DNA of 63,880 nucleotides, counting the filler, from an uncultured Acidimicrobiia bacterium (GTDB lineage Bacteria > Actinomycetota > Acidimicrobiia > Spongiisociales > JAOTWH01): NCBI GenBank assembly GCA_964347285.1. It is 8 parts of 8 records of this genome, joined end to end, with 100 filler letters (N's around TTAATTAATTAA, not from the genome) between each part and the next. Parts side by side here need not be neighbours in the genome. Positions count along the whole stretch, not along the records: positions 17,662 to 26,180 come from CAYFYE010000098.1; positions 26,281 to 34,733 come from CAYFYE010000099.1; 6 more parts are not named here. The stretch is one strand, 5' to 3'. Each line of letters begins with the position of its first letter. Position 1 is the first letter of the stretch. Shown in pieces: positions 21,001 through 27,000 of this stretch. The position numbers were made by a program.

Positions 21001-24000
21001 ATCGCCGACCAGCAGCCAATTGGGCCCGACCTTGGGCCCCACCGAAAGTGACATCGGGAGCTTGCCCCCCCTGGGCTCGGTGAGGGCCGACTGCGCCGTG
21101 ATCTCCCAATAGTCGGGCAGGGTGGCGACGAGCAACTCCATGAGACTGGAGGTATTGATGTCCTTCCACCCTTTGAAGGTGGACATGACTCCCACCCCCA
21201 CATTCACCGTGCCGTCGCCGAGCGGGAACAGCCATCCGTAACCGGCCACCGATCGGCCGGCCTGATCGGGGATGCCCAGGTGGCTCTCGAGGTACTGGTC
21301 GTTCGACCGGGGGGTGGAGAAGTAGCCCCTGGCAGCCAGCCCGTACGGAAGGCTCCGGTCGCGGTAGACGCCCAGCGCCCGTCCGAAGCGGGACAGCGAT
21401 CCATCGGCGATCACCACGATTTCGGGCTCGACGCGCTCGATCTCTTCGCCATCCACGAGGTCGACTGCGGTCAGGACGCCTTCCTCGATCACCGGGCGGG
21501 CCTCGGTGCGCTGGCGCACCACCGCACCCTGCTTCTCGGCGAGGCCGACCACCCGGCCGTCGAGGTCGGCTCGCCTGATCACCCCGCCCCAGGACGGGAA
21601 GCGGGAATGCTCCGGCCAGGGCAGCTCGAGCATCAGGTCCCCCGCATAGGCCCGCAGCCCGACGATGCGGTGAAACTCGGGAAGCGAGAAATCGAAGCCC
21701 ATTTCGGTCAGCTCGTAGATGGCGCGCGGGGTGAGTCCGTCGCCGCAGACTTTGGGGCGCGGGAACTCTTTCTTCTCGACGACCACCACCCCATGCCCGT
21801 TGCGGGCCAGCCAGTAGGCGGCAGCGGCTCCGCCGGGGCCGGCGCCGACCACCAGGACTTCAGGGGAGGGCATGGTCGGAGGCTACCGCCGGAGTCGGCC
21901 TACCCCAGGCTCAGGGAGCGGCGGCGGTCATCTCGCCCTCGCCCTCTCCGGCGCCGATCTCCAGGAGCCCGCATTCCTCTTCGGCAGAGGCCAGGTCCTG
22001 ACCGCCGTGGCTCACCCGCTCGAAGAGCACCACCGAGCCCAGCTCCTCTTCGGACAGCGTGTCGCCGAAGGCCGGCATTTGGGCACCGCTCCCGCCCAGC
22101 GGCTTGGCTGTGGCTCCATAGGTCGGCTCCGGCCAGCCCAGCGTGCCCACCCGCACCCATTCGACGTGATCGGTGCACGAGCCCTCCGGGAACGTGACCA
22201 ACACCTCACCTCCGGCCAGGGCGGGGAAGTTCCCGCCCCCCTGACCCTCGGAGCCGTGGCAGGCCGAGCAGATCGACCCGTAGATCTCCTCACCTATGGC
22301 CAAGAAGTTCAGGGACTCCTCGCCGAATGCCGTGCCGTCGCAATTGACCGCCTCTCCGGTGGCCGGGTCGACCAGGAGCTGAGCGCCGACTCCGCATTCG
22401 GGGCCGTTGGGGAAGAACAGGGCATAGAAGAGGGCGATCGCCGGCACGATCATGAACGTCGCCGCCAGCCAGGCAGGGATGGCCAGGGGCCGAGCGGCCT
22501 CCTCCGGCTCTTCGGGAATCTCCTCGGGCTCCTCCTCCTCCACCCACGGGGCCTCGGGGGCGAGCACCTCGACCTCCGGTCCGGCGGGCTCGGCCGGGGC
22601 GGCGGGCTCGGCCGGGGCGGCGGGGGGCGCCGCGGCTTCCTCGGCCGCCTCGGCGGGGGCTGCTTCGGCGGGTGCTGCCGCGGCGATCTCGCCTCCTCCG
22701 GCCCAGGCGGTCAGCACCGCCTCCACCGGGACGCCGTCGGCAGCCGCTCGGGCCCGGGCAGAGCGCTCGACCATTCCCGGAGGGAACCCCAGCACCTCGG
22801 CCGCTCTTTCAACCAGCTCTTCCAAGGCGGCGCTCCTATTCCAGAGCGGACACGTACAGGCCGACCGCAGTGAGGTCGGCGTCGCTCAGGTAGTCGTAGG
22901 ACGGCATGATCGACCAGGACCGGGCCCCCGGGCCGGTGCGCGGCGAGCGGAGGTGGGCAATGACCCAGGTCGCCTCATCGGTCGGGCTGCGCGCCCCCGC
23001 ATGGGTGAGATCGGGGCCGATACGCACCGACCCCAACAAGGGTGGGACCTCCAGCGCGTAATCCCCGGGCAGGGACACGGGCCCGAGGTCCACGTCGGTG
23101 ATGATCGGGCGGACTTGCTGGGTGTGGCAGTACATGCACCCTTCGCGCACATAGACGTCTCGCCCCACGGCTTCCACCGATCCCGATGCGAAGTCGAGCA
23201 CTTCGGCTCGGGCCGTGGGCCGGCGATGTGAGATCTCGAGGGACGGAATCAAGAAGACGGCTACTGCGGCCAGGACGAACAGGCCCACCGCCCCTCGCAC
23301 CACCGTGACGGTCGGGATGGGACGGGCCGGTTCCGCGTTGGAATCCGGCGGTTCCTCGACGGGACCCCGGACGGCGGATTCCTCTGGTTCGGTTGCGCCC
23401 CGTCTCATCGCAACCATCAGCCCGAACAGAACCTGGGCGCCCAGCACCACGACCAAACCGACGGCGGCAACGACATGCCAGGCCCCCATGGGCTCCACCG
23501 AGTTGATGAACCCCTGGCCGACCGACGCCACCCCCTCGGAACGGGCGTCGGCGAGCCATGTGAACCCCTGCTGTAAGCCGGCCGCCGACTCGGCCACCAA
23601 CGCCAGGCCCAGCCCGACGATCGTGAACCACCAGTGGGCGCGGGCCACCGGGACCGCCCCCGGTGCCCAGGCCTGGTAGACGAAAGCGAACAACCACATC
23701 GAGGCCACCCCGAGGATCACCAGCAACTCGAAGGCGACCTTCCACCCGGTGAACTGGACGACGGCGCTGGGAGACCGCAGCGCCTCCACCAGGTTCGCCA
23801 CCGGCAGAAGTGCCAGAAAGCAGGCGCCGGTGACCAGGAAGCGCCGGGCCGCCGATGCCGGCCCAGAGACGGCGCCCCGCAACGAGCCGGCCAGATCACT
23901 CACCACCGCCCACAGGGGCACGACCAGAACGAAGGAGAAGACGATGGCCACGGTCTCCAGCCAATCGGGTAGCGGTCCGAACACCCCGAACCGGGGGGCG

Positions 24001-27000
24001 ATCCAGGCGGTGACGAATGCGAACGACCAAAAGGCGATCTGGCTCACCCTGGTACCGAGCGGACCACGCCCGGAGACCCGGCCCGCCACGTAGTAGGCCA
24101 GTCCGATGGCGGCTCCCACCAACCCCAGCAGCGCCAAGGCGGTGAACCCGAACCAGTACTGGAGCGCCGAGTTGACCCCCCTTAGTCCGGGAACGGCGCC
24201 GGCCAGGAGGGCCAGCGGAACCCACCACACCGCCGCAACCAGGAACCACTGGGCGGCCGCCGACGATCCCTCGTCCTCCCTCATGGTCCTGGTCACGATG
24301 TAGGCCGAGACGAAGAACGAGAGCGTGACCACCACGTCCGACCACCACGGCAGCTCGAAGAAGGGGAGGCCCTGATTGCCTCCGGCGGCCACGGCAACGA
24401 TGCCGGCCAGCAAGCCCGAGGCTCCCAGGACGAGGTTGGCCCGGGCCAGCGGTTCCTTCCACAGCCTGAGCCCGCCCAACCGGGGAATGACGTAGTAGGC
24501 CGCCCCCACCAAACCGAGGCCCAGCCAGCCCAGAAGAAGCGCATTGGTGGCCACCGGGCGGACCCGGCCGAAGCTCAAGAACGCGGTGCCGCCCAAGAAC
24601 TGCGGCCACACCATCTGGACGGCGTTGACGGAAGCCGCCAGCAGGCCCAGGACCAGGAAACCGATGGCGACCGCGACATGGGCCCTGGCAGCGGAGTCGG
24701 AAGGGACGGTCGGCGCGTCCGTACCATCGCCCGGTTGGGCTATTGAGGTCACGTCGGCCCGCTCCTCCCACTCATCGACGGGTGCCCCGAGACCGCCTCC
24801 GGCCCGGCGCGGCGCCGCATTGTCCTCGGTGATCGGGTAATCGTCAAAGCTCACTGCACGGCAGTTTCTTGCGGCCGGCACGCCACTTACAATGTGCCGC
24901 CGCTGCCCCTAGGAAGAGCCGGTGGACGACGTACAGCGCAGACGCCTCGGTGTGGTGGGCCTGGTTGCGGGCCTCCTGGTGTTCACCCTGGGATGGCTGG
25001 CCGCCCACTTCACCGGGCTCCCCGAGCAGAACTCGGTGGGCCAGGACATCTACCCGGCCATACCGCGCGGGTGGCAGTGGGTGACGCTGTCCAAGATCGT
25101 GGCCCTCATCGGCGGCCAGATCGCCATGGCCGCGGTCGTGGTGGGGTGGTTGTGGGAACGGCCGATGACCTGGGCCCGGGCCAGCGTCGGGGCGCTCCTG
25201 TTCTCCCTCGAGATCCTCATCGTCTTCGCCTTCATACCCAACGAATGGTTGGGCCTGACCCAGGGCGAATTCGAATGGACCTCCCAGAAGATCGCATTCA
25301 CGATCCCTCCGTGGCTGGTGCTCAACAACACCGTGGAGATCAGCTATGGAGCAATCAAGGACGTGGTCTCGGGTACGTACAGTGCCGTAGCCCTCGGGGC
25401 GCTGCTGGTGATCGTCTATCAGGTGCAAGAACGCGGCAAGAAGAAGGCCGCAGAGCCGCCGATCAAGCTCTCCGACTACGGGCGGCCGATGGTGAGGGGG
25501 GGCCGGTAGATGGCAAAGGCCGATGTCTGGTTCGAAACCCCGCCGTTTCGTGACGATTACCAGCTGGTCGAGGTCGACGGCGAATACTTGAAGACGGCGG
25601 TCAAGCCGAAACAGTTCCTCCACATCGACCAGGCGGAGTGCATTCTGTGCGAGGGCTGCGTCGACATCTGCCCGTGGAAGTGCATCCACTACCTCTCCGT
25701 CGAGGCGATCGCCGAAGCGACCAACACGGTCGACCCCGGCGCCGACGCCGAGGCGAAAGGGATCTTCGTGGTCGACGAAGACGAGTGCACTCGCTGTGCG
25801 CTGTGCATCGACCGGTGCCCAACCGGCGTGATCACCCTCGGCAAGTTCGAGGGGTCGCTGGCCGACCAGGTGGTGCAGGCCGGCTTGGCACCGTGGGAGA
25901 CCGACACCGGCCAGCGTGATTTCAAGAACGGGTACGCCTACGGCATGCGGTGGTGACGCATTGACAGACGGCAACGGAGCGGGGAACGGAAGGATCAGAC
26001 TGCGGGAGCGCCTGTCGGAGGCGGCCGGCCGGGTGCGCTCCAGTCAGGTGTGGTCGAGCGTGTTCCGGCCCGGCTCACCGTTCCGGGAGGGGTACGCCGA
26101 CAGCCCCCGCAACCGCTCGTACGTGATCATGAACAACGTGCTGTATCACCTCCACCCGGTGAAGGTGAAGCGGCACGGCGNNNNNNNNNNNNNNNNNNNN
26201 NNNNNNNNNNNNNNNNNNNNNNNNTTAATTAATTAANNNNNNNNNNNNNNNNNNNNNNNNNNNNNNNNNNNNNNNNNNNNGGCACCGGCGCCAGGGCGCC
26301 GGCGACGACAATCGCAGTGAGCAGCGAGCCCAGGCTGATCTTGCGTTTTGACATCAGAGACTCCTCACCGAAAGCGGGATCCCACGGATGGGAACGAGAG
26401 CGACGACACCGAAGAGGATCAGGCGGCGGACGGCTCGTCGATCCGATATCCCTTCCCCCGGACGCGTAGCCCCCATGACCCGCCTCCTCCCGATCGATGT
26501 CTTTGCCCACAACGGTCGACGGCCCGATCGAGGTTGTATAGGGCCGAAAGTCACATCCAGTGGTCGAGGCCACCGGCCAGCCCACCGACGGTCGCCGGGG
26601 GCCGGACCCCAACGACGGGTCCGCCGAGAAGATGCGGCGTTTCTCTCTCCCGTGCCCGGCCCGAGCCCGGCCCGGCCCGGCCCGGTAGATTGGCGGCCGA
26701 TGGACCAGGCATCGGGCGTCGTGGAAGTCCCCGCCGAGGTCCCCGACGTGGTCGCCCCGTCGCCGCGCCGGCCGTGGCGGCAGGTCACGTGGGTCCGGCG
26801 CACCCTGGCTTTCCTGACGATCCTGGCCGCTCTCGTCGTGCTGTGGGAGCTCTACAAGCTGGTGTGGCGGGCCGCCGGCTGGCAGTGGCCGGTCAACCCC
26901 TCCAACGATTCGATGCCGCACACCTGGGACATCGCCGATGCCCTGTTCTCGCCGGCCCGACGCGGCGGAGAAGACATCTTGCTGGTCATCCTGTTGCGCT

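Follow-up and report, generated by a model that had tools for sequence, protein, structure and literature searches.

The window, a stretch of 63,880 nucleotides joined from eight parts of the genome of an uncultured Acidimicrobiia bacterium (GCA_964347285.1), holds a fused ccoN-ccoO gene, the gene of a cytochrome c (cytC1) next to it and a divergent operon for a membrane protein, a ferredoxin and a split cytochrome b (Table 1). The ORF of the fusion is 22836-24881 (-), i.e., 681 AA counted from the first GTG; translation is likely to start at the GTG at 24752, which stands behind GGAGGAG. Residue numbers of the fusion protein count from 24881, not from 24752. A promoter scan returned a single weak site, no better than chance.

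Table 1. Coordinates of genes and functional positions at the ccoN-ccoO locus, counted along the window.
Feature	Position	Strand	Basis or remark
MenJ-like geranylgeranyl reductase family gene	20638..21873	(-)	Downstream of cytC1; conserved neighbour
cytC1, monohaem membrane-anchored cytochrome c	21911..22825	(-)	Next gene after the fusion
ccoN-ccoO fusion	22836..24752	(-)	638 AA; CcoN fold of 12 helices and fused monohaem CcoO domain
Distal Met659 of CcoO	22905-22907	(-)	Alignment
CMYCH haem c motif, residues 582-586	23124..23138	(-)	CcoO domain
CcoN membrane domain	23397..24752 (approximate limits)	(-)	Pfam COX1; predicted model vs 3mk7
F384 at H345 (haem b3), L386 at H347 (haem b)	23724..23732	(-)	Alignment to 3mk7_A
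R297-F298 at CuB ligand positions H257-H258	23988..23993	(-)	Alignment to 3mk7_A
F246/T247 at CuB ligand position H207	24141..24146	(-)	Alignments to CcoN
A111 at haem b ligand position H60	24549..24551	(-)	Alignment to 3mk7_A
Membrane protein of no known family, about 4 helices (4TM)	24922..25509	(+)	Opens the divergent operon
2[4Fe-4S] ferredoxin	25510..25956	(+)	Present in 214/251 class genomes
Split cytochrome b, 5' end	25961..26180	(+)	Cut by contig end; rest on C60

Fold and cofactor sites of the fusion protein

Pfam assigned COX1 to residues 65-477 and FixO to residues 534-670. The predicted model of the fusion protein (pLDDT 89, pTM 0.93) had CcoN as its top Foldseek matches and superimposed on 3mk7 with an rmsd of 2.1-2.4 Å over 461-471 columns; the modelled protein keeps the 12-helix subunit I fold of the C-family haem-copper oxygen reductases. 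Scores stayed below the NCBIfam cut-offs for ccoN (120/583 bits), ccoO (73/201 bits) and the fusion (PRK14485; 230-231/1080 bits), and a search of the ESM Atlas with the full protein returned COX1/FixO clusters only.

The ligand columns were read off an alignment to the CcoN of P. stutzeri (3mk7_A). Each of the six His which bind haem b, haem b3 and CuB was found substituted, mostly by aliphatic or aromatic residues; the equivalent of H207 is F246 against 3mk7_A and T247 in MAFFT alignments, neither being His. The cross-linked Tyr Y251 is replaced by T291, and this column holds Tyr in 0% of 75 ligand-less sequences vs 89% of 38 intact ones. None of 58 family matches retained the complete ligand set, with a single His at the H257 column in 2 of them (4 of the 58 sequences were without the H60 region). 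The intact control P0060 kept its His motifs at all six columns in the same alignment. No His, Met, Cys or Lys was conserved at these columns as a substitute ligand, and no residue exceeded 55%. The six columns which are empty here would also have to hold the His-ligated haems and the FeB/CuB site of a nitric oxide reductase (cNOR, qNOR, eNOR and kin). Gone from the 75 ligand-less sequences, compared with the 38 intact ones, are the equivalents of the six His, Y251, E122, T215 and Y317; what they conserve is largely Gly, Pro and Trp together with loop residues (P93, G105-R106, G167-G171-E176-P178-D182, P231, G302-P303-P305-W307, R369, T378 and G435-G439-W442).

The CcoO domain has both the CxxCH and the distal Met of a cbb3-type monohaem CcoO. 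This distal ligand is Met in 18/18 intact controls. Among the ligand-less relatives it is His in families f4, f6, f10 and f16 and Gln in f7 and part of f12, and 4 of 6 f59 proteins have neither ligand type. The earlier note, which had described a protein with all six His lost, no aligned relative keeping the set and an intact haem c motif, was thus confirmed on these points, and its verdict that the protein is not an oxygen reductase is borne out as far as sequence goes, ligands, cross-linked Tyr and a conserved replacement ligand all being missing. Bound haem b would probably be absent from the CcoN part.

Distribution and gene neighbourhood

The gene was detected in 99 of 121 genomes of the order, and strong matches were obtained for 62 of 72 in a second survey. 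The earlier count of 23 in 25 gave the same picture, with a share higher than found here. A restriction of the gene to the order has to be corrected, as orthologues without the ligands were also recovered from three further Acidimicrobiia families and from f59, f61 and f105 of other classes. The f16 sequences join the outgroup by long branches in the FastTree tree; hence, it is gene order which supports their orthology. Purifying selection acts on the gene, with dN/dS values of 0.035-0.052 in 5 of 6 close pairs.

On contig C60, cytochrome b is followed by the genes of subunit IV (with APWY), the Rieske protein, a dihaem cytochrome c and a small membrane protein, with rex on the other strand. 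The overlap reported between the end of contig C98 and this cytochrome b was recovered over 31 nt; it is inexact, with 2 synonymous mismatches. The conserved neighbours noted before in 7 of 7 loci were found again, the divergent 4TM/cytochrome b operon being present in 19 of 20 fetched loci, of which L055 was unresolved by gene calling and L041 was without the ferredoxin. High-GC genes were mis-called in L054, L055, L120, L184, L243 and L245, and absences in single loci are therefore soft. Neither ccoG, ccoH, ccoI nor ccoS was called in the fetched loci of the order. The divergent arrangement of ccoN and the ferredoxin/split cytochrome b/Rieske operon is order-wide and extends to three families of other Actinomycetota classes; in L098, the ccoN module stands without a complex III operon within 8 kb.

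The fusion is not present wherever the operon is, as judged by the ferredoxin marker (Table 1). All 13 operon loci from other Acidimicrobiia families were without ccoN-ccoO, and 5 of them have retained cytC1 by itself. Since the operon exists class-wide without the gene, CcoN-CcoO does not belong to the core of that complex; it would rather be an accessory module, dispensable for complex III.

A-type subunit I was found in 92 of the 99 ccoN-positive genomes of the order. In the window's own genome, two caa3 loci carry His motifs and no active C-family paralogue of the ligand-less CcoN is present; each of 5 tested 1-Mb genomes (5/5) has one A-type gene. In genome G130, a caa3 operon is located between ccoN and ccoO. 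Thirteen genomes of the order have CtaD and gave no ccoN match.

The neighbouring cytochrome c

The cytC1 protein consists of an N-terminal motif, a Pro/Ala linker, one TM helix, a loop between Cys144 and Cys162, CxxCH and Met250. A complex model of CcoN-CcoO with cytC1 scored 0.61, the best of three controls being 0.00; in the calibration, 116 of 157 solved complexes came up to this mark, as did 2 of 215 mismatched pairs. The docking runs agreed in at least 84% of contacts, with a partner pLDDT of at least 79. According to this model, CcoN-CcoO contacts cytC1 through CcoN residues 301-328 and R369 and the CcoO 590-602 loop, facing the TM helix and the 138-168 Cys loop of the cytochrome. The docking site may coincide with the position which CcoP takes in solved cbb3 structures, so that the passing score may reflect structures already known to the predictor. 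The Cys loop, recorded before the docking model came in, is present in 26 of 26 cytC1 proteins from loci with ccoN and in 0 of 5 from loci without it, a split which follows kinship.

The N-terminal motif comprises 40 residues, and its profile also matched subunit IV (17 of 19 proteins) and the majority of split CcoO proteins of the order. Within the window's own genome, cytC1 and subunit IV were the only matches (E <1e-16; next 0.058), and the best score in a reversed-genome control was 17.8 bits. The motif rests on the profile search: pairwise BLAST of the two copies was not significant (19/40 identical, E 1.6), and the ESM Atlas gave no match ≥ 0.9. The cytC1 gene does not form part of the f59 and f61 loci, nor is the shared motif seen in these families.

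Candidate roles of the ligand-less oxidase

We propose, with a probability of about 0.6, that a dead cbb3-type oxidase is reused as a chassis on which c-type cytochromes are kept in place between complex III and a functional A-type oxidase. Its ancestor would have been a working cbb3-type (C-family) oxidase whose catalytic cofactors were later lost, and the protein would have been retained because its body of 12 helices supports CcoO and offers a binding surface to the cytochrome c encoded next to it. The CcoN-CcoO-cytC1 unit would then serve the menaquinol-oxidising Rieske/cytochrome b complex as an accessory chassis, perhaps in physical association with it, and would position c-type haems at the outer membrane face, from where electrons may go on to the real terminal oxidase (caa3). 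We infer electron flow through CcoO, including its direction. For contact of the unit with complex III or IV in a supercomplex, the shared motif and the gene order are indirect indications. The description of the protein as a conserved scaffold or electron-transfer subunit in the earlier note gains support from selection, the docking model, the shared motif and the parallel in Verrucomicrobiota described below. The conserved structural residues, the Cys loop of cytC1 and the A-type oxidases of the order also speak for a chassis; against it stand the operon loci and CtaD-bearing genomes without ccoN, genome G045 in which no A-type gene was found, the variable distal ligand, the f59 and f61 loci and the solitary module of L098. 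Because the distal ligand of CcoO varies by lineage, a scaffold is favoured over a finely tuned relay; with such variation, CcoO does not look like a fixed-potential relay.

An assembly or maturation factor, in which the vacated oxidase body would act as a chaperone of haem or apo-cytochromes, e.g., for the Rieske/cytochrome b complex, and stays outside the running chain, appears unlikely. It would fit a variable CcoO ligand, and ccoN directly follows resA-resB-ccsB in the same direction in f17, f20 and f61 and is divergent to ccmA-F in f59. However, no maturation genes are adjacent to ccoN in the fetched loci of the window's order, the same operon is made without it in most genomes of the class, none of the haem-binding His remains conserved and the Verrucomicrobiota copies are placed among structural genes.

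We also give little credence, slightly less than to a maturation factor, to the idea that the CcoO haem acts as a redox buffer, senses a gas or ligand or lets electrons out to another acceptor, with CcoN as a mere anchor. In f7, part of f12 and f59, Met is changed to Gln or lost while CxxCH stays, and in genome G045 (95% complete, 4 contigs) ccoN-ccoO and the ferredoxin were found and an A-type gene was not. Against this, Met or His prevail, both being six-coordinate ligands, the loci read show no signalling domain, whether fused or adjacent, and 12 conserved helices would be superfluous in an anchor.

It is very improbable that the protein is instead an ion channel or a regulated proton leak made from the proton path of the oxidase. 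The fold is intact, and of T215, Y223, Y251 and Y317, which we take to be the cbb3 proton channel residues, the equivalent of Y223 is kept in 85% of the ligand-less sequences; those of T215, Y251 and Y317 are found in only 4%, 0% and 15%, however, and core columns vary freely. Equally small is the chance that the protein is still an enzyme, through other ligands or a single haem b. Genomes G384 and G323 retain the haem b pair H60 and H347, 5 of 6 f59 relatives retain H347, and single-ligand swaps are described for other oxidase families, but the ligand columns of the window protein and its relatives offer neither a conserved His, Met, Cys or Lys nor any other dominant residue. In eNOR, sNOR, gNOR and nNOR, haem-copper relatives with changed active sites, the haem ligands are kept, according to the available part of the source, which took sequences with at least some conserved residues into its database and names gNOR as the first family in which one active-site His is replaced (10.1101/2021.10.15.464467); the protein described here has replaced all six ligands. 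A decaying gene or an alignment artefact, which low pairwise identity (35-50%) and long branches of the relatives might suggest, is largely refuted by open frames, dN/dS of about 0.05, retention in 24 of 26 genomes close to 1 Mb in size and intact controls which align with six His in the same alignments.

In Verrucomicrobiota, a ligand-less ccoN-ccoO-cytochrome c set is flanked by the genes of alternative complex III on one side and an operon for an A-type oxidase on the other; 102 of 120 matches in this neighbourhood keep at most three His, and the named matches include intact ones (P0273, P0346, P0366). A single origin of the ligand-less groups of Actinomycetota and Verrucomicrobiota was rejected (p-AU 1.2e-6, 18 rows vs 19), the group having been chosen after the trees were viewed and a quick tree having been used. 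Tentatively, and with odds somewhat below even, we suggest that cofactor-free CcoN forms a class of respiratory subunits which has arisen repeatedly and has gone undescribed. In at least two cases (Actinomycetota and Verrucomicrobiota), a cbb3 oxidase encoded beside a complex III would have lost its catalytic centre and become an adaptor, linking complex III of either type (Rieske/cytochrome b or alternative) to an A-type oxidase. As part of this suggestion, subunit IV, CcoO and cytochrome c of Acidimicrobiia would be leashed together by a short helical motif in the cytoplasm, carried on flexible Pro/Ala linkers.

With cbb3 oxidases (CcoNOP; PDB 3mk7, 8smr, 6xkw), the locus shares the subunit I fold, the CxxCH of CcoO and the order N-O-cytochrome c, and the N-O fusion also occurs in PRK14485; it differs in the missing ligands and cross-linked Tyr and in its third gene, a monohaem cytochrome with a private N-terminal motif. 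The bc1-cbb3 supercomplex of Pseudomonas aeruginosa, in which, in the available text, a cytochrome c1 hairpin lies between CcoO and CcoP (PMC10556555), is a precedent for CcoN, CcoO and CcoP touching complex III. Its oxidase is active, whereas the CcoN described here is presumably dead and its complex III is split-b and ferredoxin-bearing. ActF of alternative complex III is a respiratory membrane subunit which is homologous to a catalytic one (ActC), is without substrate site or cofactors and stays in the complex, as far as the available text of PMC5928083 goes; it is a duplicate beside an active paralogue, unlike the present protein. Split cytochrome b is listed for Ilumatobacter in the available part of PMC4122944, and the window operon agrees with the APWY-clade complexes in its split cytochrome b and in APWY of subunit IV; in that part, 'cbb' has 0 occurrences.

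In the open-access literature, no description of a ligand-less CcoN was found. To our knowledge, the His ligands of haem-copper oxidases are regarded as invariant, and a conserved family without them would be a pseudo-enzyme branch of the superfamily. As some relatives keep the haem b pair only, the family may be a natural record of the stepwise death of a terminal oxidase, and the module is a testable candidate for complex III-caa3 coupling in these groups. The cbb3 oxidase is taken as a marker of low-oxygen respiration in the available text of PMC6688271, an inference which would mislead for carriers among the widespread Acidimicrobiia and many Verrucomicrobiota; with every haem- or copper-holding residue lost, carriers should not count as having cbb3. 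Databases label the ligand-less relatives 'cbb3-type cytochrome c oxidase subunit I'.

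Ligand loss and distribution of the CcoN-like protein

The central open reading frame is a COX1 and FixO fusion (ccoN*-ccoO), its start codon likely being at 24752. Its database relatives carry Acidimicrobiia names, and it scored below the NCBIfam cut-offs for ccoN, ccoO and the ccoN-ccoO fusion. The loss of all six metal-ligand histidines claimed in the earlier note was borne out by alignment to P. stutzeri CcoN: the columns of H60, H207, H257, H258, H345 and H347 hold A, F/T, R, F, F and L, and that of the cross-linked Tyr (Y251) holds T. The predicted structure of the window protein (pLDDT 89, pTM 0.93) matches CcoN best. 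The full His set was found in 0/58 family matches and in 0/19 rows of fetched loci. The family alignment retrieved 80 named loci, of which 26 lack the ligands (24 with Acidimicrobiia or Actinomycetota titles, one nameless and one short contig labelled Gammaproteobacteria); the remaining 54 have His at every covered position, so the alignment detects the ligands wherever they are present. Since the defining ligands are absent, ccoN* lies, as judged from sequence, outside the cbb3 oxidase family. The ligand-less CcoN family is real and conserved.

Matches to ccoN* were found in 99/121 genomes of the order, in keeping with the order-wide, conserved gene reported before. Strong matches in the class sample were confined to 62/72 order genomes, 24/26 genomes of family f16 (0.9-1.1 Mb in size) and the sole genomes of families f17 and f20; there were none in the remaining genomes of that sample. 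Some families have the two genes fused, and others have them as separate genes. In the phylum sample, 24/400 genomes outside the class matched, and 20 of their loci were examined: 12 hold ligand-poor orthologues (f59, 6; f61, 5; f105, 1), five are intact, one has the haem b pair only and two are NOR-like. The unpublished genomes G004, G016, G264, G291, G305 and G397 were counted in the order, class and phylum tallies; the loci examined all come from other genomes, and no claim depends on these six alone.

The short contig with the Gammaproteobacteria label, L108 (7.9 kb), bears a fused ccoN*O of Acidimicrobiia type and is possibly mis-binned. A NOR-like subunit I in family f81 has Trp at the H207 column and lies behind a dihaem cytochrome.

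Gene surroundings and respiratory complexes

The divergent position to a ferredoxin-cytochrome b-Rieske operon recurred in the loci examined, where ccoN*-ccoO-cytC1 (cytC1, a membrane-anchored monohaem cytochrome c) reads away from genes for a 4TM protein, ferredoxin, cytochrome b, subunit IV, Rieske protein, dihaem cytochrome c and a small membrane protein; rex, menJ and nuo lie close by. Across the 72 order genomes, ccoN* and the ferredoxin were both present in 60 and both absent from nine, ccoN* occurring alone in two and the ferredoxin alone in one; the ferredoxin is found in 214/251 class genomes. In families without ccoN*, the operon is present and ccoN* and ccoO are absent in 13/13 loci (cytC1 is retained in five), so complex III does not require the module. 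Genome G130 has its ccoN* and ccoO separated by an inserted caa3 operon.

The window's source genome carries caa3 genes at two loci as well as one ba3-like gene, and A-type subunit I was found in 92/99 order carriers of ccoN*. Of the other seven, three have other or partial COX1 matches, three are 56-79% complete, and no A-type gene was found in G045 (95%).

Several minor features were recorded (coordinates in the table). The ferredoxin, of a class-wide 2[4Fe-4S] type, is encoded within the complex III operon, and cytochrome b has a CLGG Cys, which we take to be the haem ci attachment site; together they hint that electrons may enter on the cytoplasmic side. In f59, a membrane-anchored cupredoxin-like protein replaces cytC1 before menJ. 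A Rex-type operator pattern matched exactly near the operon or menJ in f59/f61 loci (L250, L251, L253, L256, L258, L262) and in nine Verrucomicrobiota-type loci; no exact match was found in the window's own locus. In genome G000, split cytochrome b and subunit IV occur as a second pair behind a 600-aa protein that resembles, by its N-terminus only, a flavin/iron-sulfur oxidoreductase; the set may be a Rieske/cytochrome b variant linked to NAD(P)H. The third complex of this genome comprises Rieske, cytochrome b and a subunit IV to which a cytochrome with seven CxxCH motifs is fused; it adjoins genes with 6, 1 and 7 CxxCH motifs.

Coordinates of features in the window and in related loci
Feature	Location	Strand
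Contig C98, one of several joined in the window, carrying the finding	window 17662-26180	
HD-domain protein fused to at least 6 Ig/cadherin-like repeats, truncated at the contig edge	window 17664-20510	-
Ferredoxin gene	window 25510-25956	
Cytochrome b with CLGG Cys	C60:1-597	
Second cytochrome b/subunit IV set (L037)	G000 C147:2-2941	
Third complex (L035)	G000 C7:12116-20000	
Cupredoxin-like protein, f59	L258:16169-16945; L256:15901-16686	
NOR-like subunit I, f81	L267:8857-10251; L268:773-2155	
Motif repeats	L041:7653-8522; L038:10357-12087	

Docking model, shared motif and proposed mechanism

A Cys-bounded loop follows the cytC1 membrane helix in 26/26 ccoN* loci vs 0/5 other loci, these groups being kin groups too. 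The complex model of ccoN*O with cytC1 scored 0.61 (best control 0.00; the mark is reached by 116/157 solved complexes and 2/215 mismatched pairs), with contact agreement of at least 84% and partner pLDDT of at least 79. In this model, the cytC1 helix lies against CcoN* 301-328 and the loop against CcoO 590-602, a modelled contact that may reproduce the CcoP site known from solved structures. A profile built on the cytC1 N-terminus matched 17/19 subunit IV proteins, as well as split CcoO in 6/6 f16 loci and in most loci of the order; in the own genome there was no further notable match beyond cytC1 and subunit IV. The profile search did not find the motif in fused CcoO, in locus L057, or in CcoO of f20, f59, f61 and Verrucomicrobiota. 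We infer a putative cytoplasmic association motif tying together the products of the two divergent operons. The 40-residue motif also makes up a separate repeat protein encoded between ccoN*O and cytC1, or is present in several copies on cytC1 itself. At the distal ligand position of CcoO, Met is found in 18/18 intact controls and 17/17 Verrucomicrobiota rows, but several actinobacterial families have His or Gln there or no ligand, which counts against a tuned relay.

Most likely, ccoN* has a role akin to that of a cbb3 oxidase chassis. With a probability of roughly 60%, an ancestral cbb3 oxidase would have docked on complex III, become redundant alongside caa3, lost its binuclear centre first and haem b afterwards, and been retained as a ligand-less body for its docking surfaces. 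The late loss of haem b is suggested by genomes G384 and G323, which retain the haem b pair only; Obscuribacterales-type loci, in which intact cbb3 genes are linked to genes for Rieske protein and cytochrome b, are the kind of starting point that the mechanism requires.

That ccoN* is instead an assembly factor seems unlikely; in favour of this reading, the module lies downstream of ccs genes in f17, f20 and f61 and faces ccm genes in f59. A sensor or alternative exit is slightly less probable still. An ion path and a new active site are both improbable: in 75 ligand-less vs 38 intact rows, the equivalents of E122, T215 and Y317, presumably calcium and proton-channel residues, are likewise lost, and no replacement ligand is conserved at the six columns. 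The loop Gly/Pro/Trp residues are retained in the ligand-less rows. Decay is scarcely credible, ccoN* being maintained, with dN/dS of 0.035-0.052 in 5/6 close f16 pairs (the sixth undefined; dS near saturation and two rows from one assembly).

A second ligand-less lineage in Verrucomicrobiota

Searches of the open-access literature found no description of a ligand-less CcoN; older subscription papers on cbb3 evolution may mention such sequences. A survey of new haem-copper families calls gNOR the first with even one active-site His replaced (10.1101/2021.10.15.464467). A profile search of 50% representatives gave 150 rows, of which 143 were scored: 72 complete rows have no His and 32, one control among them, have all six. 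One ligand-poor group bears Verrucomicrobiota names; there, ccoN*-ccoO-cytochrome c lies behind alternative complex III-like genes, usually ahead of an A-type oxidase operon (18 metagenome loci around one member; one locus and part of a second were annotated gene by gene, and L184 is mis-called). Intact copies exist among Verrucomicrobiota, and of 120 matches in this neighbourhood, 18 have six His and 102 at most three. Two reviews treat the gene next to alternative complex III in verrucomicrobial methanotrophs as coding for a cbb3 oxidase (PMC8498564, PMC6688271).

In trees computed without the six ligand columns, the actinobacterial ligand-less group is separate (SH 97-98) and the Verrucomicrobiota group is nested within an intact clade (support 97-99); a single grouping of both was rejected by a tree test. 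CcoN-like proteins with partial His loss (P0118, P0122, P0139, P0198, P0117, P0177, P0199, P0173 and P0190, of which P0117 carries an Armatimonadota name) lie on separate branches, which suggests further independent losses.
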